This document shows, in pieces, positions 9,908-37,093 of a stretch of DNA of 37,093 bases. Position numbers and translations under genes: made by a program. The stretch comes from a virus (lineage: Duplodnaviria > Heunggongvirae > Uroviricota > Caudoviricetes): IMG/VR virus record IMGVR_UViG_2740892211_000019; one strand, written 5' to 3'. Under the pieces are notes generated by a model. The model was not told the DNA's origin. It saw only the letters and a list, made by a program, of their open reading frames with translations, and did no database searches. Each line of letters starts with the position of its first letter. The first letter of the stretch is position 1.

Positions 9908-9911
9908 ACCA

Positions 9912-10226
9912 ATGACGACACCAACCAGACGGATAAGTTTCTATCTGAAGCCAGTCGCCGTCAATAGTGAACGGGAGGCGTGTAATTACCTCGACAGCCT
10001 GCCAGCCTCTGAACGCAGCCGCGCGCAACGCGCGGCCTTTCTGGCCGGGCTGGCACTCATAAAACGCGATCCTGCATTTGCCTATTGGTTGGCCGAATGG
10101 CCGGAAGAAGGAGCTGCGCCAGCCAAGAATAATATTCAGAGTAAATATGCCAGCACACCTGCCACCGGAAGCAATCACAGCACTAGCGAGATAAGAAAGA
10201 ACATTCAGTCATTTTTCCCAGAGTGA
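9912..10226 (+). CDS. parR: ParR/StbB-like centromere-binding protein (ribbon-helix-helix)
   Basis: ATG at 9912 with AAGGAG upstream, 4 nt after the parM stop. N-terminal beta-strand-like RISFYLKPV, then LDSLPASERSRAQRAAFLAGLAL, which closely matches my recollection of the R1 ParR core. Confidence 0.7.
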   Translation: MTTPTRRISFYLKPVAVNSEREACNYLDSLPASERSRAQRAAFLAGLALIKRDPAFAYWLAEWPEEGAAPAKNNIQSKYASTPATGSNHSTSEIRKNIQSFFPE

Positions 10227-14281: not shown

Positions 14282-14435
14282 TGCTCCCCCTGAGTAATTA
14301 CAGGAAGATTACCCGCGCGCGAAACCGTTCTCCTTAACCCCCTGTTCTGGCCGTTTTCTTACAACAAAAGCCCTTTGTATCAGCCTGTTACGCTTTGCCA
14401 TCATGACTGAAGAACCAGTCAGAGGGGCAAAAACT

Positions 14436-19097: not shown

Positions 19098-19239
19098 CCC
19101 ACCCACATGGGGAAACCTCGGAATATGGGGCGACCGCCTTCTGGATGCACTGGAAACCTGTAACGCGGATAAACGGGCCATTGCTGAACTGGATAAGAGA
19201 ATAGCCGAACTGACACACCAGACGGGAGTAACACAATGA
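18928..19239 (+). CDS. Rz1-like o-spanin lipoprotein (LysC analogue), in the +1 frame overlapping Rz
   Basis: Signal peptide with lipobox LLTGC and a proline-rich mature region. Start may instead be the internal ATG at 18958. Confidence 0.55.
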   Translation: MNSYATILQKMNAPTLCLTLVLLTGCAGTQNAPGPAPSVRLIPQTLTMPVTPPPFPDPPTWGNLGIWGDRLLDALETCNADKRAIAELDKRIAELTHQTGVTQ

Positions 19240-21113
19240 CCAGTAAGAACTTTGCACTGATTACAGCCATGACACAGGCTGAACTGACTCAAAAGGTGAA
19301 TGAACATCTTGCGAAAGGGTGGCATCTTCAGGGGGAGACGCGGGTTGCCTACGAACCCGGCACCCCGTGGTATCTAATGCAGGCAATGGTGGCCGATGGC
19401 ACTACAGACATCTCACCTGATTCCCCCCAGCACGGCAGCGTGCCGGAGTGGTATTACGTGGTGGTACTTGCTGGTCAATCCAATGCCATGTCATATGGTG
19501 AGGGAATGCCGCTGCCGGATTCTTACGATGCGCCCCACCCACGCATTAAGCAACTGGCCCGTCGCAACACAGTGACTCCCGGTGGTAAAGCATGCGCATT
19601 TAACGACATCATTCCGGCAGACCACTGCCTGCATGATGTTCAGGATATGAGCGCACTGAATCACCCGAATGCAGACCTGAGCAAAGGGCAGTATGGCTGT
19701 GTCGGACAGGGCTTGCATATTGCCAAACGCCTGTTGCCTTACATTCCACAGAATGCCGGGATTTTACTGGTTCCATGCTGTCGTGGTGGTTCGGCATTCA
19801 CCCAGGGCGCGGAGGGGACATTCAGCGAGTCCACAGGAGCCAGTCAGGATTCGGCTCGCTGGGGTGTGGGTAAACCTTTATATCAGGACCTGATTTTGCG
19901 CACGAAGGCCGCATTGCAGAAAAACCCAAAAAACATGCTGCTGGCCGTATGCTGGATGCAGGGCGAATTTGACATGAGCGCCGCTACGTACTCACAGCAA
20001 CCTCCGCTGTTTACGGCCATGCTGAAACAGTTTCGTGCGGACATTACCGAGTTTAACACGCAGTGTCATGGAGGCAGAGCGGCAAGTGTGCCATGGATTT
20101 GTGGTGACACGACGTATTACTGGAAAAACACCTACGGCACGCAGTACGACACCATTTACGGGGCGTACAAAAACAGGGAGAGCGACAACGTTTTCTTTGT
20201 GCCGTTCCTGACCGATGGTAGTGGCAACAATACCTCCACCAACGCACCAACGGAAGATCCGGATGCTGCAAGTGAGGGATATTACGGTTCGGCATCCCGA
20301 ACGAACAAAAACTGGGTATCATCAAATCGCCAGACGCATTTCAGCTCATGGGCGCGTCGTGGCATTATTCCCGATCGTATGGCAACCGCTATTCTGAACG
20401 TAGCCGGTCGCACCTTAGCCTTCATCAGTGGTAAGGCACCGGAAATCAAACCCTCGCCCGGCGGCGACACGCCATCGGGGCCGTCTGAAGATGCATCCGT
20501 ACGCACAATCTCCCTGTTGCCGACAGCCGGAGATGCTGCTGCGCAGGGCTGGAGCATTAAGAATGGCGGAATTCAGTTGTCAGAGGGTGTATTTAAGATC
20601 ACCAAGCAGAGCAATAAAACCTGGTCCCTGACGCGCCCGGTGGATGACGCAGTCTCCCTGCTGACACGGGGTGGCAGACTGAGCTGTAAGTTTCGACTGT
20701 CAGGCGCACTGACCAACAATCAGTTCGGTCTGGGAATTTATCTGTATACCGATGTAGCGTTACCTGACGTCGTGGCGATGACCGGGACTGGTAACCCGTT
20801 CCTGATGTCGTTCTTCACCCAGACCACAGACGGCAAACTGAATCTGATGCATCACAAGAAAGCAGGAAACACAAAGTTGGGCGAGTTCGGGAATTACAGT
20901 AACGACTGGCAGACGCTGGAGCTGGTGTTCACCGCCGGCAGTGCCACGGTTACTCCGAAACTGAATGGAGTGGCTGGCCCGGCATTCCAGGTCATAAAAG
21001 ACAGTCTGACACTGGGGCTGAATGCGCTGACGTTAACTGATATCACTAAAAATGCCGCGTACGGCGTCGATATCGGCAGCCTGGTGCTGGAAATCAATAA
21101 TCCCGCAGCATAA
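19236..21113 (+). CDS. NanS-p-like sialate O-acetylesterase (N-terminal DUF1737-like domain, SGNH/SASA esterase domain, C-terminal domain of unknown function)
   Basis: VVVLAGQSNAMSYGEG is the GQSN nucleophile block of sialate O-acetylesterases. N-terminus (ALITAMTQAELTQKVNEHLAKGWHLQGE) resembles the DUF1737 leader of prophage NanS-p proteins. Inserted between the lysis cassette and gpR. Confidence 0.7.
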   Translation: MTSKNFALITAMTQAELTQKVNEHLAKGWHLQGETRVAYEPGTPWYLMQAMVADGTTDISPDSPQHGSVPEWYYVVVLAGQSNAMSYGEGMPLPDSYDAPHPRIKQLARRNTVTPGGKACAFNDIIPADHCLHDVQDMSALNHPNADLSKGQYGCVGQGLHIAKRLLPYIPQNAGILLVPCCRGGSAFTQGAEGTFSESTGASQDSARWGVGKPLYQDLILRTKAALQKNPKNMLLAVCWMQGEFDMSAATYSQQPPLFTAMLKQFRADITEFNTQCHGGRAASVPWICGDTTYYWKNTYGTQYDTIYGAYKNRESDNVFFVPFLTDGSGNNTSTNAPTEDPDAASEGYYGSASRTNKNWVSSNRQTHFSSWARRGIIPDRMATAILNVAGRTLAFISGKAPEIKPSPGGDTPSGPSEDASVRTISLLPTAGDAAAQGWSIKNGGIQLSEGVFKITKQSNKTWSLTRPVDDAVSLLTRGGRLSCKFRLSGALTNNQFGLGIYLYTDVALPDVVAMTGTGNPFLMSFFTQTTDGKLNLMHHKKAGNTKLGEFGNYSNDWQTLELVFTAGSATVTPKLNGVAGPAFQVIKDSLTLGLNALTLTDITKNAAYGVDIGSLVLEINNPAA

Positions 21114-21136: not shown

Positions 21137-21604
21137 ATGCTTAAGACAAACAGTCTGCGAGAGTCCATGCTTCATGGGTGTCGGTGGTGCCAGGCTAATC
21201 CCGAGAAATTCACCATTTTCGTGGAGAGCGGCAACATTGAAACGACCGGAGAAGCGCCCTCGTTTGTTTACCGCTATCAGATGGTGATGTTTGTCATGGA
21301 TTACGCCGGAGAGCTGGACGACCTCACGCTGCCGCTGCTGGCGTGGTTATCCGAAAATCAGCCACAGTTGTTGCTCAATCCGGAGCGTAATCAGGACATC
21401 AAATTTTCTGCCGTTATCAATGACGATGACAGCGCCGATCTCCTGTTTACGCTCCCCCTGCGGGAACGCGTTCGCATCACGCGCAACAGTCAGGGCACAC
21501 CGCAGGCAGAACACCTGCCGGAGCCAAAACCCCGTCTGCCTTCTTCCGAAGGCGACTGGTCGCATGTATTCCAGGATGTGACGTGGGGTGAAAGCGATGG
21601 ATAA
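21137..21604 (+). CDS. R: Tail completion protein R (P2 gpR-like)
   Basis: ORF track, 155 aa; RBS AGGAG; synteny. Confidence 0.85.
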   Translation: MLKTNSLRESMLHGCRWCQANPEKFTIFVESGNIETTGEAPSFVYRYQMVMFVMDYAGELDDLTLPLLAWLSENQPQLLLNPERNQDIKFSAVINDDDSADLLFTLPLRERVRITRNSQGTPQAEHLPEPKPRLPSSEGDWSHVFQDVTWGESDG

Positions 21605-22232
21605 GGCATTCACCCGCGTGGATGAAACCTTTGAGGCTATCCGCGACAGCCTGAATCAGCAGGCCATCAATAACATCGCCAGAAAGCTGGCACAGGATTT
21701 ACGTCGCGCCCAGCAGGCACGTATCCGGTCACAAAAAGCGCCGGACGGGACCGAATGGACACCACGCAGACGCCGCGTAACCCGGATACAGGAGCGCATT
21801 CGCTTTATCTGGAATAACGAAGCACGCACGCTGAAAAACTGGCATCACGACACAGGGAAATACGGGCGAACCATTACCGGGTGGGATGAGGATAAAAACA
21901 ATATCCGCACGTTTTACCGGGATGACATCGACCGTTTTCTGGAAATACGCACCCGGCGCATCAACCAGGACAGCACAAAGCGCGTCCCCATGTTCGTAAA
22001 ACTGCGCACCGCCCGCTACCTGAAAGCCCGTGCAGATGCCTCCGGTGTGACGGTGGGTTACAGCGGCGTGGCCGCACGTATTGCACGCGTTCATCAGTTC
22101 GGTGAGCGCGATCAGGTTGCGCCGGGCATTTTCACCGATTACCCGGTACGTGAGCTGTTGGGTATCAGCCAGGCAGATGAGCGCCTGATTTATAACACGG
22201 TGCTGGGCCGGATTGCGGAGGCTGTACGGTGA
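21588..22232 (+). CDS. S: Tail completion / virion morphogenesis protein S (P2 gpS-like)
   Basis: ORF track; start ambiguous (21588 or 21597), overlapping the end of R. Confidence 0.75.
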   Translation: MKAMDKAFTRVDETFEAIRDSLNQQAINNIARKLAQDLRRAQQARIRSQKAPDGTEWTPRRRRVTRIQERIRFIWNNEARTLKNWHHDTGKYGRTITGWDEDKNNIRTFYRDDIDRFLEIRTRRINQDSTKRVPMFVKLRTARYLKARADASGVTVGYSGVAARIARVHQFGERDQVAPGIFTDYPVRELLGISQADERLIYNTVLGRIAEAVR

Positions 22233-22810
22233 GCGCAGAACTCATGCGACTGCTGAGCAACATCATCCGCACCGGGATCATCTCTGAAGTTGATGAGAAG
22301 TCCTGGCGCGTGCGCGTTCGCAGCGGCGAACTGGAAACAGGCTGGTTGCGCTGGAACACCACGCGCGCGGGAGCCTTCAATGTGTGGCTGCCGCCATCAC
22401 CAGGCGAACAGGTGGTAATTGCCTGCATTGGCGGCAACCCGGAAACCGCCATGATAATTGGCAGCCTGTGGAGTGATGCCAGTCCGGCCCCCGGCAAAAG
22501 CCTGAAAGAAATCGTGGTCAGCGCGCCGGATGGCGCGGTGTTCCGCTACGACGCAGACGCTGGCGCACTGAGCGCCAGCGGCATGAAAACAGCCACCCTG
22601 CAGGCATCCGTCAGCGTGACACTGGATACGCCCGTCGTGGAATGCACAAACCTTCTGAGAACGGCGACGCTTGACGTCACAAAAGGGGGAAAGATGAGCG
22701 GCAATATCACGCACAGCGGCGGCAATTTCACCTCAAACGGCATTACCGTGCATACGCATAAGCACGGTGGCGTTAAAGGTGGCAGCGATTCGACAGGAGG
22801 CCCGCAGTGA
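22229..22810 (+). CDS. V: Baseplate spike / assembly protein V (P2 gpV-like)
   Basis: ORF track, 193 aa; synteny. Confidence 0.85.
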   Translation: MSAELMRLLSNIIRTGIISEVDEKSWRVRVRSGELETGWLRWNTTRAGAFNVWLPPSPGEQVVIACIGGNPETAMIIGSLWSDASPAPGKSLKEIVVSAPDGAVFRYDADAGALSASGMKTATLQASVSVTLDTPVVECTNLLRTATLDVTKGGKMSGNITHSGGNFTSNGITVHTHKHGGVKGGSDSTGGPQ

Positions 22811-24057: not shown

Positions 24058-24658
24058 TTCACTGTTACCACCATCAGCCAGCAATTTCATGCGTTGTGCC
24101 GAAGCCGTCGGAACACGCATTACAGACATTCCGGTAGACCTCAACACGCTGTGGTCGCCGGACACCTGCCCGGTGCATCTGCTGCCTTATCTCGCCTGGG
24201 CGTTTTCCGTTGACCGCTGGGATCGCAACTGGCCGGAAGAGACAAAGCGACAGGTGATTCGTGATGCATGGCTGACACACCGACACAAAGGGACCATCAG
24301 CGCACTGCGAAGAGCCGTGGAGCCTCTCGGCTACCTGATTGAAGTAAAGGAGTGGTGGCAACTCAACGAGGAGCCAGGAACATTTCGCATTGTTGTCGGA
24401 GTACTTGATCAGGGCATCACCGATGAAATGTATCAGGAACTTGAGCGCCTTATTGCGGATGCAAAACCAGTAAGTCGCCATCTGACGGGGCTGGCGATCA
24501 GCCTGAGTGTGAACGGAAAGATTTTCGTTGGTACGGGATGCTATCACGGCGATGCCCTGACGGTTTATCCCTACACCCCGGAGTCTATTATTGTCGAAGG
24601 GGATTATTTCCCTGCTCCGGCCATTCATTTAATTGATAATCTGAGAGTAAACGCATGA
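24050..24658 (+). CDS. I: Baseplate / tail protein I (P2 gpI-like)
   Basis: ATG at 24050 ([11 protein letters not shown]...) after GAAGGTGGG, overlapping the J stop. Confidence 0.8.
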
Positions 24659-26670
24659 CAGCGAAATACTACGCCATTCTGACTAATCAGGGCGCGGAAC
24701 GACTGGCTAACGCGACGATGCTCGGCAGTAAGCTGAATTTGACGCAAATGGCCGTTGGTGATGCAAATGGTGTGTTACCAACACCAAACCCTGCACAAAC
24801 AAAACTGATTAACCAGAAACGCATTGCACCGCTGAATCTTCTGAATGTTGACCCTAACAATCAGAGCCAGATTATTGCGGAGCAAATCATCCCTGAAGAC
24901 GAGGGAGGATTCTGGATCCGTGAGATTGGTCTTTATGATGATAAAGGTGTACTCATTGCGGTGGCAAACTGCCCGGAAACGTACAAACCGCAGTTGCAGG
25001 AAGGCAGTGGACGCACCCAGACTATCCGCATGATTCTGGTTGTCACGAACACCAAAGCCATCACGCTGAAAATCGACCCGTCTGTGGTTCTGGCAACCCG
25101 CAAATATGTGGATGATAAAATCTCAAAGCACGAGCAGTCACGACGTCACCCGGACGCCTCGCTGACCGCAAAAGGCTTTGTTCAACTCAGTAGCGCCACT
25201 AACAGCGATTCTGAAACGCTGGCTGCAACGCCGAAAGCGGTTAAGGCCGCGTATGACCTTGCTAACGCAAAATATACCGCTCAGGACGCCACGACGGCAC
25301 GAAAAGGCATTGTCCAGCTCAGTAGCGCCACCAACAGCGATTCAGAAACGCTGGCGGCAACACCAAAGGCGGTAAAGGCAGCCTATGACCTTGCTAACGG
25401 GAAATATACCGCACAGGACGCCACGACGGCACAAAAAGGAATTGTCCAGCTCAGTAGTGCAACCAACAGCACATCTGAAACGCTTGCTGCAACACCGAAA
25501 GCAGTGAAAGCAGCTAATGACAATGCGAATGGTCGGGTACCTTCTGCCCGTAAGGTGAATGGTAAGGCGCTTTCGGCGGATATAACACTGACGCCGAAAG
25601 ATATTGGTACGCTTAACTCAACAACAATGTCATTCAGCGGTGGTGCTGGTTGGTTCAAATTAGCAACGGTAACCATGCCACAGGCGAGTTCTGTTGTTTC
25701 AATTACGTTGATTGGTGGCGCTGGATTTAACGTCGGTTCACCTCAACAGGCAGGTATATCTGAACTTGTTTTGCGTGCAGGTAATGGTAATCCGAAGGGG
25801 ATTACTGGTGCTTTATGGCAGCGCACATCGACAGGGTTTACAAATTTTGCCTGGGTCAATACATCTGGTGATACTTACGATATTTACGTTGCAATCGGAA
25901 ATTATGCGACTGGTGTAAATATTCAATGGGATTATACCAGTAATGCCAGCGTGACGATTCATACGTCACCAGCATATTCTGCTAATAAGCCGGAAGGGTT
26001 AACGGACGGTACAGTTTATTCACTCTATACGCCATCAGAGCAGTTTTATCCGCCTGGCGCACCAATCCCGTGGCCATCGGATACCGTTCCGTCTGGTTAT
26101 GCCCTGATGCAGGGGCAGACTTTTGACAAATCTGCATACCCAAAACTTGCAGCGGCTTATCCGTCAGGCGTGATCCCTGATATGCGTGGCTGGACGATTA
26201 AGGGCAAACCCGCCAGTGGCCGGGCCGTATTGTCTCAGGAACAGGACGGCATTAAATCGCACACCCACAGCGCCAGCGCATCCAGTACGGATTTGGGTAC
26301 GAAAACCACATCGTCGTTTGATTACGGGACGAAAACAACCTCACTATTTGACTATGGGACCAAAACTACCAGTAACGACGGGAGTCACACGCATTCAATA
26401 CCAACATCAGATGGTGCAAACCAGGGGGGGAAAATTCCACTGACATCTGGGCGTCTGGCAACTCAATATACATCAGCAACAACAGGTTCCTCTGGCTCAC
26501 ATTCTCATACTGTAGGTATTGGTTCTCATCAGCACACTGTCGGTATTGGTGCACACACGCACTCCGTTGCGATTGGCTCACATGGACACACCATCACCGT
26601 TAACGCTGCTGGTAACGCGGAAAACACCGTCAAAAACATCGCATTTAACTATATTGTGAGGCTTGCATAA
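24655..26670 (+). CDS. H: Tail fibre protein H
   Basis: ORF track, 671 aa. Contains three tandem 44-aa repeats and a C-terminal His-rich block (HTHS ... [34 protein letters not shown]) typical of phage fibre tips. Confidence 0.85.
25171..25566 (+). repeat. Three in-frame tandem direct repeats of 132 bp (44 aa) inside tail fibre gene H
   Basis: Nucleotide copies are phased at 25201, 25333 and 25465 (AACAGC... anchor); protein unit [29 protein letters not shown]. Confidence 0.8.
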
Positions 26671-27248
26671 TGGCATTCAGAATGAGTGAACAATCACGGA
26701 CCATAAAAATTTATAATCTACTGACCGGAACCAATGAGTTTATTGGTGAAGGTGATGCATACATTCCACCTCATACAGGTCTGCCAGCAAACAGTACCGA
26801 TATTGCCCCGCCAGATATTCCGGCTGGCTTCGTGGCCGTTTTCAACAGTGATGAGGCATCGTGGCATCTCGTTGAAGACCATCGGGGTAAAACGGTTTAT
26901 GACGTGGCATCAGGGGACTCGTTATTTATTTCTGAACTCGGTCCATTACCGGAAAATGTTACCTGGTTGTCGCCGTATGGAGAGTATCAGAAGTGGAACG
27001 GCACATCCTGGGGGAAAGATGCAGAAGCAGAAAAACTGTTTCGGATAAGGGAGGCGGAAGAAACAAAAAACAGCCTGATGCAGGTAGCCAGTGAGCATAT
27101 TGCACCACTTCAGGATGCTATAGATTTAGATATTGCGACGGAGGAAGAGACATCGTTACTGGCTGCATGGAAGACATATCGAGTATTGTTGCATCGTGTT
27201 GATACAACAGTAGCAGCAGATATTGAGTGGCCAGTCGCCCCACAATAA
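26670..27248 (+). CDS. G: Tail fibre assembly chaperone G
   Basis: ORF track, 192 aa; start overlaps the H stop; synteny. Confidence 0.8.
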
Positions 27249-27256
27249 AAAGAAAA

Positions 27257-27282
27257 AGCCATCGATAGAAATATCGATGGCT
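27257..27282. terminator. Bidirectional intrinsic terminator (AGCCATCGATA-gaaa-TATCGATGGCT)
   Basis: Perfect 11-bp stem. The T-tract is strong on the minus strand (TTTTCTTTTTATT after the stem) and weaker on the plus strand. Separates G from the convergent acetyltransferase gene. Confidence 0.65.
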
Positions 27283-27291
27283 TTATGTACT

Positions 27292-27897
27292 CTATTTATA
27301 CAATACAGCACCGCTCTTTTTAGTTATATATGTGCAGTTCGATGGTATATCTTTATTTATAAAAGACATTGCACCTATTTTTACATTATCCCCAATTTTA
27401 CGGGATAATCCAATGATGCAACAATTAGCTCCGATATCAACGTTGCTACCAATTTTTACTCTTGAACCAGGTATGTCACCATCTATCTGTCCAATGGTCG
27501 TATTCTGTCGTAACACCAGATTTTCACCAGCATCAACAGCAAAATGAACAACAATTCCAGCATGATGGGGAATTGTTAACCCTTTTCCAATATTTGCGCC
27601 CAATCCAATTTCGCAACCAAATTTGTTAATTATTTTACTGTTTAACTTCTTGGCTGCTTTCTTATGTAATTTATTACCATTAATATACATTTCGTTAGCC
27701 AACCGCCACCAGAAAAGGAAATTCCTGTTACGCTGCTTTTTCTCTCTTAAAAGCCTCCAGATATCCATACGTTTCCGCCGAATTACTTCATGTTTCCAGA
27801 AGTTTTTTAAATTAGTAGAGTTCCCAAATAAAACAAAGTGAATTGCCATTAGGTAAGACAGCACGATAATCTCCTTAATTATTATTTCAGACCACAC
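27292..27897 (-). CDS. Hexapeptide-repeat (left-handed beta-helix) acetyltransferase, CysE/WcaB-like
   Basis: C-terminal half is built of hexapeptide repeats (GCEIGLGANIGKGLTI ... VKIGSNVDIGANCCIIG ... IGDNVKIGAMSFI). Visibly AT-rich gene at the P2 Z/fun hotspot position. Start codon uncertain: GTG at 27897, or ATG at 27849 or 27768. Confidence 0.7.
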   Translation of the reverse strand: MWSEIIIKEIIVLSYLMAIHFVLFGNSTNLKNFWKHEVIRRKRMDIWRLLREKKQRNRNFLFWWRLANEMYINGNKLHKKAAKKLNSKIINKFGCEIGLGANIGKGLTIPHHAGIVVHFAVDAGENLVLRQNTTIGQIDGDIPGSRVKIGSNVDIGANCCIIGLSRKIGDNVKIGAMSFINKDIPSNCTYITKKSGAVLYK

Positions 27898-28020
27898 ATG
27901 TTATAAGGTTAAGAGATTATAAAATCCTGTTGTTTATTATTCAAAAACAATTTTCTGAGAAGGACATACAACAGCAAGTCGCCAGTCACCTTCATCAGGA
28001 AATTGGCGACATACGTTAAA

Positions 28021-28515
28021 TCAGAGCAGCCCCTTAACTGAGCTGGCCGCGCTATTAAGGGATGATGTCACCTTATCTTTGAAGCCGGACAACATATCGC
28101 TGAACGATGAGGATTGCAGGCGCTCCCGCAAATCCTCATCACAGCGTTCAAGAGTCAGTGAAAATTCTATCTTTTTCGCCTTACCGTAGCGATCAAACTC
28201 GGAACGGGTCGTATTCGTTTCAGTCAGTACATACATGCCGTAAATCTGCCCGACACCATCAATCAGAGGCCAGGGCCGTCCTGTATATGCCTGCGTGGTC
28301 AGCAATGAAAGCGACACTTCGCCACCTGTAATTTCAGGATAAAGCACGCCGGAAAGCACAATGCGATCATCACCTGCACCGATATACTGCCAGCTTGCTG
28401 AACGGTTAACGCGTTCATTTTTCACATGCCGCCAGCTTTTGTTTTGCTGTAACTGCTGATGCGGCAATGTGCGCAGCTCAAAAACAAACATGCCGTAGAT
28501 CATCATCATGACCAT
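28021..28515 (-). CDS. U: Tail protein U (P2 gpU-like)
   Basis: ORF track, 164 aa; follows the tape-measure gene on the minus strand. Confidence 0.85.
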   Translation of the reverse strand: MVMMMIYGMFVFELRTLPHQQLQQNKSWRHVKNERVNRSASWQYIGAGDDRIVLSGVLYPEITGGEVSLSLLTTQAYTGRPWPLIDGVGQIYGMYVLTETNTTRSEFDRYGKAKKIEFSLTLERCDEDLRERLQSSSFSDMLSGFKDKVTSSLNSAASSVKGLL

Positions 28516-28521
28516 GACTCC

Positions 28522-31362
28522 TCAATCTTTATCGTAAAAACTGCCACGCCCGGCACGGGCGCGCCGTTCCATCTCTGCCCTGACCATTTCACCGACCAGT
28601 TTCGCCAGTTCGCGGGGATTCTGCGTAACAACGTTATGCAGATGAACATGAATTTCACCGCAAAATCCGGAGACAGCAGGCTCCCGGTTACGGGAAGTTG
28701 CAGGAACTGATGCCACTGGCGATCGTATGGCCTCCGCCACCGGGCGGGAGCTGGCCGCAACAACAGGGACCAGCGCCGGAGGCAGCGGAGCCGAGACCAC
28801 GGGTGTGATATTAATTGCGGGGGGCTTACTGACCTGCGCAATCTTCTGCTCCTGCCACTCCCCACGAACAGCAAGTGCGCGGGGCAGGTTCTTAAAGACA
28901 ATATCGCCGGGGCCAATGCGTTTTTTCGTCTCATCAACCAGCTTACCTGTGTTATCAGCAATTTTGCTGAGTCTGCGTAGCGTCCCGGTATTGCTGTCTG
29001 TGAGCGGTTTGTTGTCTTTGGGTTTATCACCTCCGGTGCCATTGCCATTTTCCACAGGCTTCGGCGGATTGATTTTCGCCAGGTCCCCCTGAAGCAAGGC
29101 AACCTTGTCCTGAAGAATGGCCGCACGCTGTGCGTCTTCGATTTTCTTGCGCGCCCTTTCAGCTTCATCCGGAAGGACGCCAAGTTTTTCAAGTATCCAC
29201 GCCAGCGTATCCAGTAGCATTTTTGCAGGTGTCAGAACAAGCTGTAACGCACCGCCAAGAACGTTACCGAATATCTCGCCAGCACTGGTACATTTATCCA
29301 GCGTTTCCTTACTGGACTCCATCGGTGACAGCAGCGATTTAAACCAGTTAAACACCTGGCTGATCCCGCTTCCGATTGCGTCAAAAACAGGGCCAAACCG
29401 TTCAAAGGTTTCGCGCAACGGAGCCAGCCGTTCCATAATCCCACTGAACACCCCTGCATAAAACGCCTTGATGGGTTCCCAGTATTTCCAGATGAGAACC
29501 GCCGCAGCCACAAACGCAGCAGCAATCAATCCGACCGGACTGAACAGCGCCCCGATAGCGCCTCCCAGTAACGAAATGGAACCCGTCACCATTCCCCATA
29601 ATGCAGGCAGAACCCTGACAACATTCAATGATCCGGTCAGGAGGGAAAAACCAAGACGCAGTTTTGCCAGTGGGCCAGCAAGCACACCAATAGCCAGCGA
29701 CAACGAGCCTATGGTTGCAGTCATTGCCAGCAGAGCACCGCCTGCAACCAGTAGCTGGCGCGTCAGTGCCGGATGGGCCTGCGCCAGCGCCGTCACCTTC
29801 GATACCACCCGCGTGAGCCACTGCGTGACAGAACGCAGCGGACCGTCAATCAGATCTGCAATGCGGATGCGCAACCCTTCCCATGCACTGCCGAGTGATT
29901 TCAGATCGCCGTCAAGGTTGTTGGCCATAACCTTTGCTGTGCGTTCAGCCTCACCGCGCGCGCCTTCAAGTTCTTTTCTCAGTTTGGGTAAGGAGCCGTC
30001 ACCTGCCGCATCAACGAGGGCCATAAATGATGTGAAAGCCTCTTCTCCGGCAATGTCCTTAAAGAACGATACCCGGTCAACTTCCCCGTATTTGCGGGTG
30101 GCTTTATAAAGGTCAGCCAGCAGATCTTCCATCGGGCGCATTTTGCCGTTCGCGTCAGAGACGGACACGCCCAGCTCTTTCAGCGCCTCTGCTGCTGCCT
30201 TTGGCGGTGATGCCAGACGAGCCAGGCTGGCACGCATTGCCGTCCCGGCATCACTCCCTCTGATACCCATATTCGCCAGCACGCCAGCCATCGCTGCGGC
30301 CTGCTCCAGCGATATTCCCAGCTTACCCGCCACCGGACCGGCATATTTCATGGTTTCGCCCAGTGCGCGAAGGTCAGTGTTGGTACGGGTAAACGCTGCA
30401 GTGAGTGTGTCACCGACCCGGTCCATCTGGTCAGCAGAAAGGCCGAACTGCGTCAGGATATTTGAGCCAATATCCGCCGTCTCGCCGAGATCCATACCGC
30501 CAGCCGTTGCCATGCTCAACACGCCGGGAAGCGCAGCCTGAATGGCCTGCGGTGTGAAGCCAGCCATTGCAAGAAATGCCTGCCCACTGGCGGCATCGCC
30601 TGCGGTGAACTGCGTTTCAGAGCCAAGTTTTAACGCCTGCTCACGCAGCGCCTTAAACTGCGGGCTGTTCTGGTCGATTCGCGTCAGCGCCTGAACGCGG
30701 GACATCTCTTTCCCGAACCCGATTGCGGGCTGCAAAAAACGCCCGGCAGCATAGCCGCCCGCCGCTGCCGCACCAATTGCCAGTACACCACCTGTTTTCA
30801 GTTTTCCCGCTGTTTCCTGCGCACGCGAATACCGCTCACGCGCCCGCGTTACACGCGCAAGCGCCTGCCGTTCGCGTTCAAGCTGGTTGTTGTACTGTTC
30901 GGTGCGCCTGATGGCCTGTTGAATGGTGTTATCGCTGCCTGTCAGGGAAATGCCGTGGCGTTTCAGCTCTCCGCCAAGCTCCCGCATTTTCTGAATTTCC
31001 CGTGTGCGCGATTCATTCAGGCGTTCAAGCCGGGTGCTTAACTGCTGCATCAGCTTTTGTTGCTTTTCGCTGAGCACTGTACCCGTGCGTTGTAACTGAT
31101 TAAGGGCGTTAAGCTGGCGTCGTGCTTTCACGATACCCGCATCCGCTTTACTGACAGCGTCGCGGGCGCGCTCAAATGAACGCGCCTGACGCTCGAGATT
31201 TTTGATCGCCCCCTGCGTTCGCTGGATGGAGTCACCAAACTGCCCCATCAGGCGGCGGGCGTTTTCGGCAGGCCGGGTCAGCCTGTCAACGGCGCTGAAA
31301 GCGACCCGGATATCAAGAGTCTTCATTGTCTGCATTCCCGCTGCGAAGTGCCGCCCGCTCAC
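28522..31362 (-). CDS. T: Tail tape measure protein (P2 gpT-like)
   Basis: ORF track, 946 aa; coiled-coil-rich N-terminal part and Gly/Ala-rich hydrophobic segments; synteny. Confidence 0.9.
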   Translation of the reverse strand: MSGRHFAAGMQTMKTLDIRVAFSAVDRLTRPAENARRLMGQFGDSIQRTQGAIKNLERQARSFERARDAVSKADAGIVKARRQLNALNQLQRTGTVLSEKQQKLMQQLSTRLERLNESRTREIQKMRELGGELKRHGISLTGSDNTIQQAIRRTEQYNNQLERERQALARVTRARERYSRAQETAGKLKTGGVLAIGAAAAGGYAAGRFLQPAIGFGKEMSRVQALTRIDQNSPQFKALREQALKLGSETQFTAGDAASGQAFLAMAGFTPQAIQAALPGVLSMATAGGMDLGETADIGSNILTQFGLSADQMDRVGDTLTAAFTRTNTDLRALGETMKYAGPVAGKLGISLEQAAAMAGVLANMGIRGSDAGTAMRASLARLASPPKAAAEALKELGVSVSDANGKMRPMEDLLADLYKATRKYGEVDRVSFFKDIAGEEAFTSFMALVDAAGDGSLPKLRKELEGARGEAERTAKVMANNLDGDLKSLGSAWEGLRIRIADLIDGPLRSVTQWLTRVVSKVTALAQAHPALTRQLLVAGGALLAMTATIGSLSLAIGVLAGPLAKLRLGFSLLTGSLNVVRVLPALWGMVTGSISLLGGAIGALFSPVGLIAAAFVAAAVLIWKYWEPIKAFYAGVFSGIMERLAPLRETFERFGPVFDAIGSGISQVFNWFKSLLSPMESSKETLDKCTSAGEIFGNVLGGALQLVLTPAKMLLDTLAWILEKLGVLPDEAERARKKIEDAQRAAILQDKVALLQGDLAKINPPKPVENGNGTGGDKPKDNKPLTDSNTGTLRRLSKIADNTGKLVDETKKRIGPGDIVFKNLPRALAVRGEWQEQKIAQVSKPPAINITPVVSAPLPPALVPVVAASSRPVAEAIRSPVASVPATSRNREPAVSGFCGEIHVHLHNVVTQNPRELAKLVGEMVRAEMERRARAGRGSFYDKD

Positions 31363-31842
31363 GCCAGCTAACCACTTCGCCGGGCGTCATCATGAAGATT
31401 TCGGCGGGCGACCAGTTAAAAATAACGGCAATATCTGCCACAAAGTCTTCTATATGCTCAAAGCACACAACCGTGATCAGGCTTCCGTCGCCTGTTCGTT
31501 CTTCCCGCCAGAGTCCGCACCGCTCAAAAAATTTACGGCAACCACACATAACTGAATAAAGTCACGGGATGCCATTTTTTTGATCGTCACTTCATCCAGT
31601 CGCGGTGATGTCACGCGTGACAGCAGCGTAAACATGGATTCCGCTTTCAGATTCAGCACATCAGACAACGACAAATCTCGCAGAGATCCAGCCTGCTCAA
31701 TAGCTCCGGTGATCTCCACATACGTGATTTTTTCGCCGCCTCGCTCAATTGGTTGGGTAAGTTTTACGCCACGCTCACTGGTTTCTTTCACAGTGTCAGC
31801 AACGACCGTGTTTTCGGTATCGATGTTTTTCGTCTCTTTCAT
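31313..31842 (-). CDS. E': Tail assembly chaperone E+E' (-1 programmed frameshift product)
   Basis: Slippery heptamer T_TTT_TTG on the minus strand (plus coordinates 31525..31531) falls on the AAT-TTT-TTG codons of E. The -1 frame is open from there to 31313 and overlaps the start of T, as in P2. Confidence 0.6.
31477..31842 (-). CDS. E: Tail assembly chaperone E (P2 gpE-like)
   Basis: ORF track, 121 aa; RBS AAGGAG on the minus strand; ends in ...AVNFLSGADSGG.... Confidence 0.8.
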   Translation of the reverse strand: MKETKNIDTENTVVADTVKETSERGVKLTQPIERGGEKITYVEITGAIEQAGSLRDLSLSDVLNLKAESMFTLLSRVTSPRLDEVTIKKMASRDFIQLCVVAVNFLSGADSGGKNEQATEA

Positions 31843-31896
31843 CAGGAAACTCCTTTCAGTCAGAGGCGACGCACTGCGCCGCCTGCATATTACTTA

Positions 31897-32409
31897 TCAG
31901 CCAAGCCCAAGCGCGGAACGGATGCGATCGGGCACAATGTCTTTGCCGTCCTTCCGGTAAATGAAATTCAGCAGGTCAATCTCCCACAACGGGCGATCGT
32001 TAACACTCAGCTTGTAGTAGGTGTTTTTAATGGCGTAAGTGTGTGATGTGGCTTCGCCCTGTTTGGCTTCCCCCATATCAATTTCCGTCACACGTCCGCG
32101 CATTTCGACTTCATACAGGTCGCTTTCTGCATCGGTGTAGTATTCACCCGCAAAACGCAGCAGCGTGCCGTCAATCGTGCCGCCATACTTCAGGAACAGC
32201 TCACGAACTGCGCCCCCCATGACAAAGCTCGCATCAAGCGCGGAGTCGTCCAGACCGAGATCAATACTTACCGCCCCCATCATGCCACCACCACGATAGC
32301 TGTCGGTTTTGCGCGTCAGTTTAGGCAAGGTGACGGACGTCACCTTACCCACTTCGTTTTCACCATCCACAAACAGCGTAAAAAAGCGAAGATGTTTTGG
32401 TACAGCCAT
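31897..32409 (-). CDS. FII: Tail tube protein (P2 gpFII-like)
   Basis: ORF track, 170 aa; synteny after the sheath gene. Confidence 0.9.
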   Translation of the reverse strand: MAVPKHLRFFTLFVDGENEVGKVTSVTLPKLTRKTDSYRGGGMMGAVSIDLGLDDSALDASFVMGGAVRELFLKYGGTIDGTLLRFAGEYYTDAESDLYEVEMRGRVTEIDMGEAKQGEATSHTYAIKNTYYKLSVNDRPLWEIDLLNFIYRKDGKDIVPDRIRSALGLG

Positions 32410-33593
32410 CAGGCACCTCCCAGCACCGCAAATGCGGGACCAAAGAATTCATCAGTAAACGACTGGTAAAGCTCCATGTCTTCCAGCGGAGGAACGGGCG
32501 TATATTTGTAGCGAATACGCACACGCCCCTGACGTAAATCCGTGGTGCTGTTATCCACCACGTCATACCAGCACGACGCCCCAATCAGTTTCCCGGCAGT
32601 AACCAGTGAATCCAGTTTTGCCCTGATGGCACTGATAACATCCTTCACGTTCGCAGGCGTCAGTGGACTGTCGATGGTTTCAAACTGCGCTTCCGCAATT
32701 GAATCAGCCAGCACCTGTGCGGTTCGGGTATACACCTCAAAGATGTAGGCGTTCGTTTCCGGTGTGCGGTTGCCCCAGAAGCGGAACCCGTTGCGACGAA
32801 TAATGGTCGTGATTTCTTTGTTGTTGAGGCTGTTGGCATCACTGTCTTCGGCCTGCAACGACCAGAACACATGCCTGGACATCCCCAGCACATTTTTAAC
32901 CGGAACGTTGGACAGCGATTTGTGCCAGCCCTGCTCATGGTCAATGTACGCACGAAGGCCGCACGCATAGGCAGGCGCGGGGAACGTTTCGTTTTTGCCA
33001 CTTTTCGGGTTGTAGGCGATGAAGTCCGGCCATAAGAGCATCACCTCACGTTCGTTGAATTTCTGGCGGTAGGTAATCGCCTCAGCCATCGTGTTACAGC
33101 CGTGACATGAGGCATACACAAACGCGCGCAGTTTACCCGCAATCACGCACAGGGATTTTGTTACCGCCTCCGTGTCCAGCTCCGGCGCGGCCAGAATACG
33201 CGGACGGTATCCGATGCTTTCATCCTGCTCTGCAACAAGCAGCGCATACATCCCCGTATAGCTGCCGTCAGATTCAGAACCACCGATAACCAGTTGATCC
33301 TGCGTTTTTCCGTCTTCTTCTTTGTGTTCAGCCACGCGAACGACGATCACCTTTGTGCTCACCTGGTCTGCGATGGCCTTAAGCGCACGATAAAGCGTCC
33401 CCGTTGTCCCGCATTTTCCCAGCACGTCATTGACGCGGGTCAGCAGTGTGGGCTTGTTCAGCGGGAACAGCTTCGCGTCCGCATCATCCGCCGTTGCCAC
33501 GATACCGATAACGCTGGAATCAACATCGTTAATCGCTGTTACCAGGTCGGTATTTTCCGTAACACGGGCACCATGAAAACGAGTTTCACTCAT
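32409..33593 (-). CDS. FI: Contractile tail sheath protein (P2 gpFI-like)
   Basis: ORF track, 394 aa; motifs such as TLIRRNGFRFWGNRT and YKYTPVPPLE match the P2 sheath as I recall it. Confidence 0.9.
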   Translation of the reverse strand: MSETRFHGARVTENTDLVTAINDVDSSVIGIVATADDADAKLFPLNKPTLLTRVNDVLGKCGTTGTLYRALKAIADQVSTKVIVVRVAEHKEEDGKTQDQLVIGGSESDGSYTGMYALLVAEQDESIGYRPRILAAPELDTEAVTKSLCVIAGKLRAFVYASCHGCNTMAEAITYRQKFNEREVMLLWPDFIAYNPKSGKNETFPAPAYACGLRAYIDHEQGWHKSLSNVPVKNVLGMSRHVFWSLQAEDSDANSLNNKEITTIIRRNGFRFWGNRTPETNAYIFEVYTRTAQVLADSIAEAQFETIDSPLTPANVKDVISAIRAKLDSLVTAGKLIGASCWYDVVDNSTTDLRQGRVRIRYKYTPVPPLEDMELYQSFTDEFFGPAFAVLGGA

Positions 33594-33750
33594 AGCTTCA
33601 GCCCCTTGTATCCGTTAAATGATTCGGCAACAATCATCACCCACCACGCGCGTAATCTCACCCCTGCGCCGTTCTCCCGCCACGGCGACAACAAAAAGCA
33701 GTAACCCCCTCCGCACGCACATGCGACCATGCCGCACAGGGAGGGAGCAG

Positions 33751-34860
33751 ATGACCGACACCACCATGCAATTGCTCAGTCAGGGCACAGACCCCGTAAA
33801 AATGCCGGATTTTGATATTCTCGCGGAGGGTAAAACGCTGTCAGGCGTGGCAGAGCGCCTGATGAGCCTGTCACTGACCGACAACCGGGGATTTGAGGCG
33901 GACCAGCTCACCATCACGCTGGATGATGCGGATGGTCAGTTGCAGCTACCGCCACGGGGCGCGCGCCTGACGGTTCTCATTGGCTGGAAGGGAGAACCGC
34001 TGACAGAAAAAGGCACTTACATTGTTGATGAAATCGCTCACGAAGGACCGCCGGACAGGCTGACTGTTTCAGCCAGAAGCGCAGATTTTCGGGATGAATT
34101 TAACGTTAAACATGAGGTGTCCTGGCATGATGTGACCGTTGAGCGTGTGGTATCCGCCATCGCTCATCGGTATGGTCTGAAACCGCAAATCAGCGAAATG
34201 CTGATGGATATCGAAATCGACCACGCCGACCAGACCGAAGAAAGCGACATGTCCTTCCTTACGCGCATGGCGGAAATGCTGGGCGCAATCACCACGGTAA
34301 AAAGCGGCAATCTGTTATTCATCATGCCAGGTGGTGGCGTGAACGCACAGGGCCAGCCGTTGCCCTCGTTCGCCATTACACGCAGCAGCGGCGATCGCCA
34401 TCAGTTCCGCATTGCTGACCGCGAGGCGTATACGGGGGTACGCGCCTACTGGCTTGATCTTAATTACGGGAAAAAGAAAAAAGTCAGCGTGAAACGCCGT
34501 AAACCGCCAAAACCCAAAAAGGAGAAAAGCAGCAGCCGTGAAGGTGATTATATGGAAGGCGCGGAAGGCAATGTGTTTGTGTTACGCAAGACTTATCAGA
34601 ACGAGCAGGCAGCAAGACGCGCAGCGGCGGCAAAGTGGCAGCAACTACAACGCGGAGCCGCATCATTCTCCATCACGCTGGCGCGTGGACGTGCAGAACT
34701 CTACCCCGAAATGCATGGCACGGTAACAGGATTTAAAAGCGAGATTGATAATCAGGACTGGATTATTGCAAAAGCCGAGCACACCATTGATAACAGCGGC
34801 TTTACCACGCAGCTTGAGCTTGAGGCAAAAATCCCGGAATGGATAGCGGAAACAGAGTGA
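33751..34860 (+). CDS. D: Tail protein D (late control gene D product)
   Basis: ATG at 33751 with GGGAGGGAG upstream, inside ORF 33619..34860. N-terminus (LLSQGTDPVKMPDF ... SLTDNRGFEADQL) resembles P2 gpD as I recall it. Confidence 0.85.
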   Translation: MTDTTMQLLSQGTDPVKMPDFDILAEGKTLSGVAERLMSLSLTDNRGFEADQLTITLDDADGQLQLPPRGARLTVLIGWKGEPLTEKGTYIVDEIAHEGPPDRLTVSARSADFRDEFNVKHEVSWHDVTVERVVSAIAHRYGLKPQISEMLMDIEIDHADQTEESDMSFLTRMAEMLGAITTVKSGNLLFIMPGGGVNAQGQPLPSFAITRSSGDRHQFRIADREAYTGVRAYWLDLNYGKKKKVSVKRRKPPKPKKEKSSSREGDYMEGAEGNVFVLRKTYQNEQAARRAAAAKWQQLQRGAASFSITLARGRAELYPEMHGTVTGFKSEIDNQDWIIAKAEHTIDNSGFTTQLELEAKIPEWIAETE

Positions 34861-34902
34861 GCAACTTAGAATAGCGACAGCACCACGTTAAGGGAGGTCG
34901 CT

Positions 34903-35163
34903 ATGTTCCGTTGTCCGCTTTGTGGCGCATCTGCCCGTATCCGCACCAGTCGTCCGGAAAATGATTCAAACACCGTGCGGCAAAAGTATTACCAGTGTAA
35001 CAACCTGGAATGCGGCGTATGCTTCTCAACACTGGAAGCTTTCCATAAATTCACATCGAAACACGCCTCCGGCGTTCACTCATCAGAAGGTATCCCGTGG
35101 CATGAGCTGCCAGCTTCACACAGGGGAAACAATCAGATGAGTTTGCCTTTACCTCAGAATTAA
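34903..35163 (+). CDS. ogr: Ogr/Delta-family zinc-finger late-gene transcription activator
   Basis: MFRCPLCG ... YYQCNNLECGVCF shows the Cys4 zinc-finger spacing of Ogr; position after D matches P2. Confidence 0.85.
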   Translation: MFRCPLCGASARIRTSRPENDSNTVRQKYYQCNNLECGVCFSTLEAFHKFTSKHASGVHSSEGIPWHELPASHRGNNQMSLPLPQN

Positions 35164-35354
35164 CAGGCAGAATTGCCGGAGTAACAAAAAAGCGATAGAT
35201 TACGCGCGGGTGCCTTTCGGCTGATGGTCGGAGGGAATACCCGAAGGCCAGATGTGGAAAGGCCCCGAGTCAACTTTAACGTTAACCCGAGGCCCTAACC
35301 ATCTACCCTCAGCAAGTGATAGGTTAGCGCCTCCCCGAAAAAGGAGCAAGCGCT

Positions 35355-35495
35355 ATGTCGCAAAAATCGCTTACGGCCATCACATTCTGCGTGACGGCAA
35401 TCCTCATCATCTGGATGCTGCACGGTTCGCTGTGTGAAATACGGATGAGTTTCTGGGGAGCGGAGTTTGCGGCGTTCTTACAGTGTAAGCAGTAA
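35355..35495 (+). CDS. hok: Hok/Gef-family type I toxin (46 aa)
   Basis: Hand translation MSQKSLTAITFCVTAILIIWMLHGSLCEIRMSFWGAEFAAFLQCKQ: TM helix, then the conserved SLCE(I/L) and AAF(L/M) blocks of Hok proteins. AAGGAG RBS 8 nt upstream. An overlapping upstream frame (35252..35437) may be mok-like. Confidence 0.7.
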   Translation: MSQKSLTAITFCVTAILIIWMLHGSLCEIRMSFWGAEFAAFLQCKQ

Positions 35496-35589
35496 GGAAA
35501 CCGCGACGGGGAAGGCAACTTCCCCGTCAATCGGTTGCCAGGGTAAAGGTCGAAAAGGCACCCTATTTCCAGTTGACGTGAACAACAAG

Positions 35590-35621
35590 CCCGCAGCGTA
35601 AAAACTGCGGGTTTTCTTTTT
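35590..35621 (+). terminator. Rho-independent terminator (CCCGCAG-cgtaaaaa-CTGCGGG followed by TTTTCTTTTT)
   Basis: Read directly from the sequence, downstream of the hok-like ORF. Confidence 0.65.
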
Positions 35622-35654
35622 GGTTCCCTCACTCATGAGGACACCAAAAAACAA

Positions 35655-35684
35655 AGCCCACAGCATAGAAGCTGTGGGCTTTTT
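35655..35684. terminator. Bidirectional intrinsic terminator (AGCCCACAGC-ataga-AGCTGTGGGCT)
   Basis: Stem followed by TTTTT on the plus strand and by TTTGTTTTTTGG on the minus strand. Confidence 0.6.

Positions 35685-35800: not shown

Positions 35801-37093
<1,293 letters not shown>

Follow-up and report, generated by a model that had tools for sequence, protein, structure and literature searches.

The inverted FI-to-U tail block of a P88-like prophage is the normal gene order of a large group of P2-like phages

In the 37,093-nucleotide stretch of viral DNA analyzed here (IMG/VR record IMGVR_UViG_2740892211_000019, hereafter the window), the tail genes FI to U are read against the other late genes of a P2-like prophage. 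Does this orientation represent a genuine inversion, an inactivating rearrangement, or an assembly artefact, the three options left by an initial annotation of the sequence?

Identity and late-gene layout of the prophage

The opposite orientation of the block was confirmed by Pfam matches, PHROGs matches, and comparison with their P2 counterparts, to which all of these proteins are 31 to 64% identical: U, T, E/E′, FII, and FI occupy the minus strand (positions 28021 to 33593), and H, G, D, and ogr the plus strand (Table 1). By sequence comparison, the window is a P88-like prophage (Peduoviridae, probably Xuanwuvirus), and it adjoins serS. Its identity to P88 is 95.5% over 73% of positions 1 to 25000 and 96.7% over 78% of positions 26000 to 35300, for an estimated similarity of roughly 70% or more. 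The ICTV demarcates genera at roughly 70% intergenomic similarity. The predicted proteins include the hallmarks of Peduoviridae, namely, the full P2 late gene set (Q, P, O, N, M, L, X, R, S, V, W, J, I, H, G, FI, FII, E, T, U, and D), an Ogr/Delta activator, Int (51% identical to that of P2), a C repressor (36%), and a gpA rolling-circle initiator (31%) with a Phage_GPA domain. The P2 proteins were all found by tblastn at 26 to 64% identity and in P2 order except for the inverted block, with P/Q divergent from O. The H protein is 64% identical to P2 H at its N terminus, and the region encoding its C terminus, together with tfa, has ~87% DNA identity to lambda stf-tfa. A NanS-p-like esterase gene is located between the lysis genes and R.

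FI and D diverge from a shared gap, as had been described. We place the start of D at the ATG at 33751 and not at the beginning of a longer open reading frame (ORF) from 33619, because close homologues align from residue 1 there and because the distance from this ATG to a dyad in the gap is conserved; the shared gap is therefore 157 bp (33594 to 33750).

At the other end of the block, the minus-strand gene at 27292 to 27897, which the initial annotation had counted within the inverted range, encodes instead a hexapeptide-repeat acetyltransferase and lies outside the tail block. This gene is low in GC (~0.38), has a sigma-70-like promoter at 27944 to 27916 (promoter scan 10/12), and is the only non-tail gene at the block boundary; it is a moron and not part of the ancestral tail block. 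A likely terminator hairpin is located where the fibre genes, read rightward, meet the tail and acetyltransferase genes, read leftward. The generic scans for sigma-70 promoters and terminators yielded about as many matches as chance would give, and they were used only for this hairpin and the moron promoter. As had been noted, no long inverted repeats bracket the block, and we found none that link 27.9 to 28.1 kb with 33.55 to 33.8 kb. The short sequence reported from both ends, CGTTAAAT, is present at 28014 and 33613, yet both copies are on the plus strand and form a direct, not an inverted, pair. Because it is missing from more distant relatives of the same layout, we attribute the pair to chance.

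Table 1. Coordinates of the late-gene features discussed in the text
Feature	Position	Strand	Basis or remark
Second dyad copy, GTTCTGGCCGTTTTCTTACAAC	14344-14365		Divergent P/O gap
Tail fibre H	24655-26670	+	Pfam Phage_tail_fib, Phage_fiber_2, Collar; near end of rightward O-to-G late unit
Tail fibre assembly protein G/Tfa	26670-27248	+	Pfam Caudo_TAP; closes rightward O-to-G late unit
Hairpin with 13-bp stem, likely terminator	27255-27284		Terminator scan, minus strand; 13 pairs, then T-run
Acetyltransferase cargo gene, serine/sugar O-acetyltransferase-like	27292-27897	-	NCBIfam EpsC/CysE/WcaB-like matches, all under cut-off; phrog_2154
gpU tail protein	28021-28515	-	Pfam Phage_P2_GpU, 5.5e-39; 46% vs P2 U; final gene of FI operon
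gpT tape measure	28522-31362	-	Pfam PhageMin_Tail; 33% vs P2 T; start in relatives' annotations (P88, 55989) corresponds to ~31329
E′ frameshift extension	31313-31549	-	PHROGs, tail (gpE/E′: phrog_103, phrog_1756)
gpE	31477-31842	-	PHROGs, tail; 32% vs P2 E
gpFII tail tube	31897-32409	-	Pfam Phage_tube, 7.5e-47; 42% vs P2 FII
gpFI tail sheath	32409-33593	-	Pfam sheath domains; 45% vs P2 FI; opens leftward operon
FI/D control region, putative bidirectional Ogr-dependent late promoter	33594-33750		157 bp
Predicted transcription start sites	~33626 (FI, leftward); ~33737 (D, rightward)		Geometry as for start sites annotated in P2
Ogr-type dyad, GTTCTCCCGCCACGGCGACAAC, TCT-N12-ACA core	33671-33692		Exact GTTCT-N12-ACAAC match
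gpD baseplate hub/late control D protein	33751-34860	+	Pfam Phage_GPD; 48% vs P2 D; 99% identity to cluster P0001 (6052 members)
Ogr/Delta-type zinc-finger late activator	34903-35163	+	Pfam Ogr_Delta, 5.1e-14; 42% vs P2 Ogr

Distribution of the inverted order

The region from 28015 to 35300 is colinear with P88, PhiR44_2, phiSM, P884B11, Chuche, and other phages at 94 to 97% identity, which in the first four holds over U, T, E, FII, FI, D, and ogr. In the annotations of these phages, genes U, T, E, FII, and FI are leftward and D is rightward. In addition, 1109 of 5426 complete E. coli genomes, about a fifth, are colinear with the window across the FI/D junction, and 495 are so across the left junction; in E. 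coli 55989, the left junction is a 100% match and the prophage occupies a different integration site. Nothing in the window by itself speaks against an assembly artefact in which the assembler would have flipped the 5.6-kb block. However, both junctions recur colinearly in sequenced phage particles and in complete genomes that are independent of one another and number in the hundreds, and a synthetic canonical U-D junction was matched in none of the 1416 E. coli genomes that carry these genes, which makes misassembly hardly credible.

To survey the order more widely, one genome per species was scanned, and the best 80 of 421 relatives were kept, a sample that leaves room for exceptions elsewhere. 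Within these 80, the inverted order was found in all 61 loci with D 57 to 99% identical to that of the window, and the 19 loci with D 48 to 53% identical, without exception, have the P2 order. The inverted loci span ~25 enterobacterial genera plus Aeromonas. In a neighbour-joining tree of D, inverted and canonical loci form separate clades; in a midpoint-rooted tree of U, the canonical group is monophyletic and the inverted group is not. The inverted orientation is standard in at least two ICTV genera, the kind of finding that the initial annotation had named as refuting its concern, and we conclude that a large and viable P2-like group, which includes P88/Xuanwuvirus, SEN4, and their relatives, has it as its normal and fixed layout. 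The layout can be seen in deposited genomes of ICTV-classified phages and in the E. coli genomes counted above. The orientation of the block is not stated explicitly in the papers on P88 and SEN4, and a Burkholderia P2-like phage paper and a 2026 paper on P2-like diversity have nothing on this inversion. We also considered a connection with the xenorhabdicin (xnp1) tailocin but abandoned it, because its paper puts the variable region between the genes for fibre and sheath, as in the canonical order.

The viability of the carrier phages bears on the idea of an inactivating rearrangement, in which the prophage would be defective and D severed from the promoter of the F operon. The P2 record, where D has no promoter of its own, is in keeping with such damage, but P88, phiSM, PhiR44_2, and SEN4 are identically arranged and form plaques or lysogenise, with plaques formed by P88, phiSM, and SEN4 (PMC5285337, PMC6456863, PMC5261728). 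In addition, all ORFs of the block are intact, and the FI/D gap is visibly constrained across the clade. We therefore regard inactivation as very improbable.

A programmed switch, in which a recombinase flips the tail block as Hin, Gin, and Cin flip tail-fibre segments, might be suspected from the serine DNA invertase gene that P88 and phiSM carry right at the left boundary, with the fibre genes on one side and U on the other. That invertase is nevertheless explained in P88 by a neighbouring classic invertible fibre segment (alternative fibre plus tfa). The window has no invertase, as shown by a scan of ten proteins encoded between H and ogr, and it has no inverted repeats around the block. 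Moreover, a single orientation was observed in the 1416 E. coli genomes and in the 61 species-level loci (from the best 80 of 421), and we assign this mechanism next to no probability. Of the three original options, the genuine inversion stands, as an ancient and fixed event that is not peculiar to this prophage; it represents neither a switch, nor damage, nor misassembly.

A predicted Ogr site between FI and D

A search of the FI/D gap for late promoters of the Ogr type, in the form TGT-N12-ACA, had been suggested. An exact search of the window for this motif returned four matches, fewer than expected by chance, and none in a late intergenic region. The gap holds instead a dyad with a TCT-N12-ACA core, which we recognised by aligning both divergent late gaps of the window and comparing them with annotated P2 sites; the left half-site of Xuanwuvirus is TCT, not TGT. 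Exact GTTCT-N12-ACAAC matches occur only twice in the window, at the two dyads listed in Table 1, and GTTGT-N12-ACAAC with at most one mismatch likewise occurs only twice, once per divergent late gap. The two dyads have an identical ACAACAAAAGC right flank, and similar -10-like elements accompany it on the D and O sides. The P/O gap is ~154 bp when measured to the O start annotated in P88. A promoter of the PV type was not found, in that no intergenic dyad with at most two mismatches lies upstream of R or V; S and V overlap.

The centre of the FI/D dyad lies 88.5 bp from the start codon of FI and 69.5 bp from that of D, and the dyad is in the same register as the P2 PF and PP/PO sites. In P2, dyad centres lie 55.5 to 57.5 bp from annotated transcription start sites, and one site is annotated for both pP and pO. 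The D transcript predicted from this geometry would have a very short leader of ~14 nt.

Across the clade, the best dyad match is located 74 to 88 bp from the FI ATG in ~56 of the 61 loci (again from the best 80 of 421 relatives), and 13 relatives have a perfect GTTGT-N12-ACAAC at that place. The half-sites are conserved and the 12-bp spacer varies freely. In about two-thirds of the loci, the D ATG and the dyad centre are 67 to 71 bp apart, and in most others 76 to 82 bp. The position of the dyad is conserved in 59 distinct relatives, as are -10-like blocks 45 to 50 bp on either side, and the D-side block is where a -10 element would be expected for a start ~56 bp from the centre. Since these relatives have common ancestry, part of the conservation of the gap could reflect inheritance rather than selection.

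Given the symmetry of the dyad, a single site is probably enough to activate promoters in both directions, and we suggest that the FI/D dyad probably drives FI and D in opposite directions; the D-ward promoter and its dependence on Ogr we infer from conservation. The -10-like elements match the consensus poorly, particularly the D-side GACCAT, which is weak. Such a poor match is expected for activator-dependent promoters, yet it weakens the promoter call; the TCT half-site and the very short predicted D leader count against the reading as well. The inversion could also be real and fixed while D and ogr are transcribed from an Ogr-independent promoter (constitutive, middle, or internal ogr-type), the dyad serving FI only. 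The weak GACCAT would fit such an arrangement, as would the separate promoter upstream of ogr in the P2 record and a sigma-70-like match at 34723 to 34752, inside the 3′ end of D. The tightly kept distance between dyad and D ATG, the conserved block at the -10 place, the flank and -10-like elements common to the D and O sides, and the P2 precedent of one site for two divergent promoters argue against it, and we consider it unlikely. On balance, we favour the view that the inversion put a symmetric Ogr site between FI and D and so may have created a second bidirectional late promoter and a short, self-activating D-ogr unit. Such rewiring is neither described nor tested in the papers examined on these phages.

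Origin of the layout and comparison with known systems

Could the block have arrived as a foreign tail module? Identity to P2 is 42 to 48% for FI, FII, U, and D and 41 to 47% for Q, P, and N. Tail and head proteins have diverged from P2 to the same extent, and we therefore rejected this origin; the equal divergence points to what would be one ancient inversion in place, now fixed. We propose that a segment comprising PF and FI-FII-E/E′-T-U was inverted once, in place, in the ancestor of a large enterobacterial P2-like clade, with one break point separating G from PF and the other U from D. PF would have moved along with FI, bringing its Ogr-binding dyad next to D, where the single symmetric dyad would activate FI to U leftward and D-ogr rightward, as annotated for P and O in P2. 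The result would be two bidirectional late control regions (P/O and FI/D) and four late units, with the long O-to-G unit and the FI-to-U unit converging on the terminator hairpin. This convergence point would act as a cargo slot, occupied here by the acetyltransferase gene. We put the probability of this explanation as a whole, a fixed ancestral inversion together with a divergent promoter, at about 0.85.

For annotators and prophage-calling pipelines, the orientation should not be taken for a rearrangement or a defect; the inverted order is rather a clean marker by which the P88/SEN4 clade can be told from phages of the P2/186 type. The clade is also a natural experiment in how an operon, given a symmetric activator site, can split and invert while late control is kept. 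If true, the bidirectional FI/D promoter would amount to a rewiring of the late circuit of P2 that arose in nature and is conserved in ~25 enterobacterial genera.

Among known phages, Escherichia phage P88 (NC_026014) and its kin, PhiR44_2, Citrobacter phage phiSM, and Xuanwuvirus P884B11, are closest: identity is ~95% over the head, baseplate, and replication genes, gene order and orientation are identical, and the FI/D and P/O gaps, dyads included, are nearly the same base for base. They differ from the window in the cargo at the convergence point: the window has the acetyltransferase gene and a fibre tip of the lambda stf/tfa kind, P88 and phiSM have a DNA invertase together with an invertible fibre segment, and PhiR44_2 has nothing there. 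The NanS-p-like esterase gene of the window is a further difference. Salmonella phage SEN4 (Senquatrovirus) has the same layout: its fibre and tfa genes point rightward, U, T, E, FII, and FI point leftward, and D points rightward. Its D protein is 63% identical to that of the window. However, the phage belongs to another genus, its int and early region directly follow D/ogr in the circular map, and its cargo is a macro-domain protein with methyltransferases.

In P2, the late operons at PP/PO diverge from a gap of 150 to 175 bp with one dyad ~55 bp from each start, a geometry that both the FI/D and P/O gaps of the window resemble. Only P/O is so built in P2, where bidirectional use of one site is annotated from experiments, whereas for FI/D of the window it is conservation that suggests such use. 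The P2 F operon, FI-FII-E-E′-T-U-D, transcribed from PF, is codirectional with H and G, D is part of it, and ogr follows downstream; in the window, FI to U is inverted and D-ogr forms a separate rightward unit. The genes and their internal order are nevertheless the same in both, and the dyad is 82.5 bp from the FI ATG in P2, 88.5 bp in the window, and 74 to 88 bp across the clade.

Orientation of the tail block in the window and its relatives

The ORF map and the Pfam and PHROGs scans agree with the initial annotation that U to FI lie on the minus strand while H, G, D and ogr lie on the plus strand. Every P2 late gene was recovered by tblastn with P2 proteins, and the P2 order is kept save for the inverted block. 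The acetyltransferase gene, which had been counted in the tail block, has low GC and is no tail gene. An ORF from 33619 was rejected as the start of D: alignments with homologues begin at the ATG at 33751, whose distance to the upstream dyad (the Ogr-type site described below) is conserved. Because D starts there, the divergent FI|D gap spans 33594-33750, the 157 bp originally reported.

Features of the window discussed in the text
Feature	Coordinates	Strand	Basis or remark
ParM and small partner gene	8948-10226	+	StbA_N and ParM C-terminal domains
625-aa protein	19236-21113	+	DUF1737, SASA (sialate O-acetylesterase), DUF6645; phrog_143
S and V, overlapping	21588-22810	+	
Fibre H	24655-26670	+	ORF map, Pfam/PHROGs scans
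H C-terminal part and tfa	26049-27232	+	~87% DNA identity to lambda stf-tfa
Tfa/G	26670-27248	+	ORF map, Pfam/PHROGs scans
Strong hairpin	27255-27284		
Hexapeptide acetyltransferase moron	27292-27897	-	GC ~0.38; promoter-like site 27944-27916
gpU	28021-28515	-	ORF map, Pfam/PHROGs scans
Tape measure	28522-31362	-	ORF map, Pfam/PHROGs scans
E/E'	31313-31842	-	ORF map, Pfam/PHROGs scans
Tube FII	31897-32409	-	ORF map, Pfam/PHROGs scans
Sheath FI	32409-33593	-	ORF map, Pfam/PHROGs scans
gpD	33751-34860	+	ORF map, Pfam/PHROGs scans
Ogr homologue	34903-35163	+	ORF map, Pfam/PHROGs scans
Hok/Gef-type toxin	~35355-35495	+	offset from 55989 annotation
Several hairpins	35504-35682		just ahead of serS
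Host serS	35801-37093	-	

By megablast, the whole window falls in the P88 group. Region 28015-35300 is colinear, at 94-97% identity, with Escherichia phage P88 (Xuanwuvirus P88), PhiR44_2, Citrobacter phage phiSM, and Xuanwuvirus P884B11, Chuche, 520873 and 500465-2; region 2786-24493 shows ~95% identity to the same phages. Because its right flank is serS, the window is an integrated prophage. The deposited P88, PhiR44_2 and phiSM records are annotated, like the window, with rightward fibre genes followed by leftward U, T, E', E, FII and FI and a rightward D. The layout recurs in a second ICTV genus, Senquatrovirus, whose type is Salmonella phage SEN4. P88 is mitomycin C-inducible and plaque-forming, with a burst size of ~65 (PMC5285337); phiSM shows spontaneous release and lysogenises K-12 (PMC6456863); SEN4/5 form plaques and have myovirus morphology (PMC5261728). 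P88, phiSM and SEN4 are working phages with the inverted layout, which excludes the inactivating rearrangement listed at first as one of three options.

A 1.4-kb probe of the FI|D junction is colinear (≥80% coverage) in 1109 of 5426 complete E. coli genomes, and a tfa-acetyltransferase-U probe in 495, with a 100% identical match in strain 55989. A synthetic canonical probe, with the 3′ end of U fused to that of D at 5′ as in P2, was found joined in none of the 1416 E. coli genomes matching both halves. Together with the deposited phages, these counts exclude misassembly, another of those options. A private rearrangement is excluded by the layout being common to P88, PhiR44_2, phiSM, SEN4 and many E. 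coli genomes, and a switchable segment by the canonical junction never being seen in those 1416 genomes. The orientation itself is confirmed, but it is not unusual: as in the ordinary case that the initial annotation had set as refuting, it is standard in a recognised P2-like subgroup, covering at least two genera and, more widely, a broad clade. In the otherwise near-identical 55989 prophage (L087 16274-17074), RefSeq gpD is a shortened 266 aa with a pseudogene fragment upstream; this D gene may be damaged or mis-started.

Depth of the inversion

D homologues were aligned, one genome per species was scanned, and FI, FII, T, U, D, ogr, I and J were located by tblastn in the best 80 of 421 relatives. 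Among these 80, all 61 loci with D 57-99% identical to the window's have I rightward, U, T, FII and FI leftward, and D and ogr rightward. They come from Salmonella, Citrobacter, Enterobacter, Klebsiella, Raoultella, Kosakonia, Kluyvera, Serratia, Pectobacterium, Brenneria, Erwinia, Pantoea, Mixta, Symbiopectobacterium, Edwardsiella, Hafnia, Yersinia, Xenorhabdus, Photorhabdus, Providencia, Morganella and others, and also from an Aeromonas MAG. All 19 loci with D 48-53% identical are in P2 order. A neighbour-joining tree of D shows the inverted and canonical groups to be reciprocally monophyletic, and in the U tree the canonical group forms one clade.

Since FI, FII, U and D (42-48% identity to P2) are as diverged from P2 as Q, P and N (41-47%), the block was not imported. 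A single inversion of the resident block took place in the ancestor of the inverted clade. No inverted repeats bracketing the block were found at its boundaries, as first noted. The short sequence reported at both ends, CGTTAAAT, is indeed present at 28014 and 33613, but on the same strand; it is therefore a direct pair and mechanistically irrelevant.

Convergence slot and accessory genes

Between 27249 and 28020, the rightward unit from O to G meets the leftward one from FI to U; the strong hairpin lies within this interval. This slot corresponds to the P2 G-FI slot holding Z/fun, and its content varies among close relatives: it is empty in PhiR44_2, holds an invertible fibre segment and a DNA invertase in P88 and phiSM, and in the window holds the acetyltransferase gene with its own promoter-like site. 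This moron is related to a "serine acetyltransferase" beside stf-tfa in lambdoid phages JL22 and Ro157c2YLVW; our guess is a putative role in surface-polysaccharide modification (lysogenic conversion). Its similarity to lambda suggests that the H tip with tfa is a fibre-tip module swapped by P2-like and lambdoid phages.

The 625-aa SASA protein, which we assign to the NanS-p type that Stx phages carry downstream of stx, is encoded after the lysis cassette and before tail gene R, a position where P88 lacks it. Over its first 25 kb, the window has matches in many records of Stx-converting phages. The ParM actin-like segregation ATPase and its partner, downstream of the gpA replication gene, are shared with P88; one would not expect partition genes of plasmid type in a P2-like phage that integrates. 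The Hok/Gef-type gene downstream of ogr is annotated at the equivalent spot in P88 and E. coli 55989.

Predicted late control regions

The exact TGT-N12-ACA consensus, for which a search of the FI|D gap had been suggested, is absent from the late gaps of the window. Alignment of the divergent P|O and FI|D gaps revealed a common GTTCT-N12-ACAAC followed by AAAAGC, present in exactly two copies in the 37 kb (14344-14365 and 33671-33692). For scaffold gene O, the longest ORF start (14403, +) would fall upstream of the TSS predicted from the P|O dyad; P88 is annotated with the equivalent of 14436 (+), which fits better.

Across the 61 inverted loci (best 80 of 421 relatives), the half-sites are highly conserved and the 12-bp spacer varies freely. 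In ~56 of the 61, the best GTTGT-N12-ACAAC match is 74-88 bp away from the FI ATG, compared with 82.5 bp at P2 PF, and 13 of these matches are perfect. The dyad centre lies 67-71 bp from the D ATG in about two-thirds of these loci and 76-82 bp in most others, and -10-like blocks are conserved 45-50 bp on either side.

Judged from these sequence patterns, the single predicted FI|D site is probably a bidirectional late promoter. On inversion, PF would have travelled with FI, and its symmetric site would now serve a D-ward promoter as well. The late genes would then fall into four units served by two bidirectional control regions, with D-ogr a short unit under positive feedback in place of the P2 read-through from PF into ogr. 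The overlap of S and V, and the absence of any Ogr-type dyad upstream of R or V in the window, suggest that the clade lacks a PV promoter; a single ~13 kb unit from PO may comprise the genes for head, lysis, tail completion, baseplate and fibres.

The window dyads share their register with the activator sites annotated in P2, GTTGT-N12-CCAAC at PF and GTTGT-N12-CCATC at PP/PO, and at all four P2 late promoters the annotated start is 55.5-57.5 bp from the dyad centre. The P2 record annotates a single site for both pP and pO. A bidirectional, single-site FI|D late promoter, as we infer it, would be the one mildly new element.
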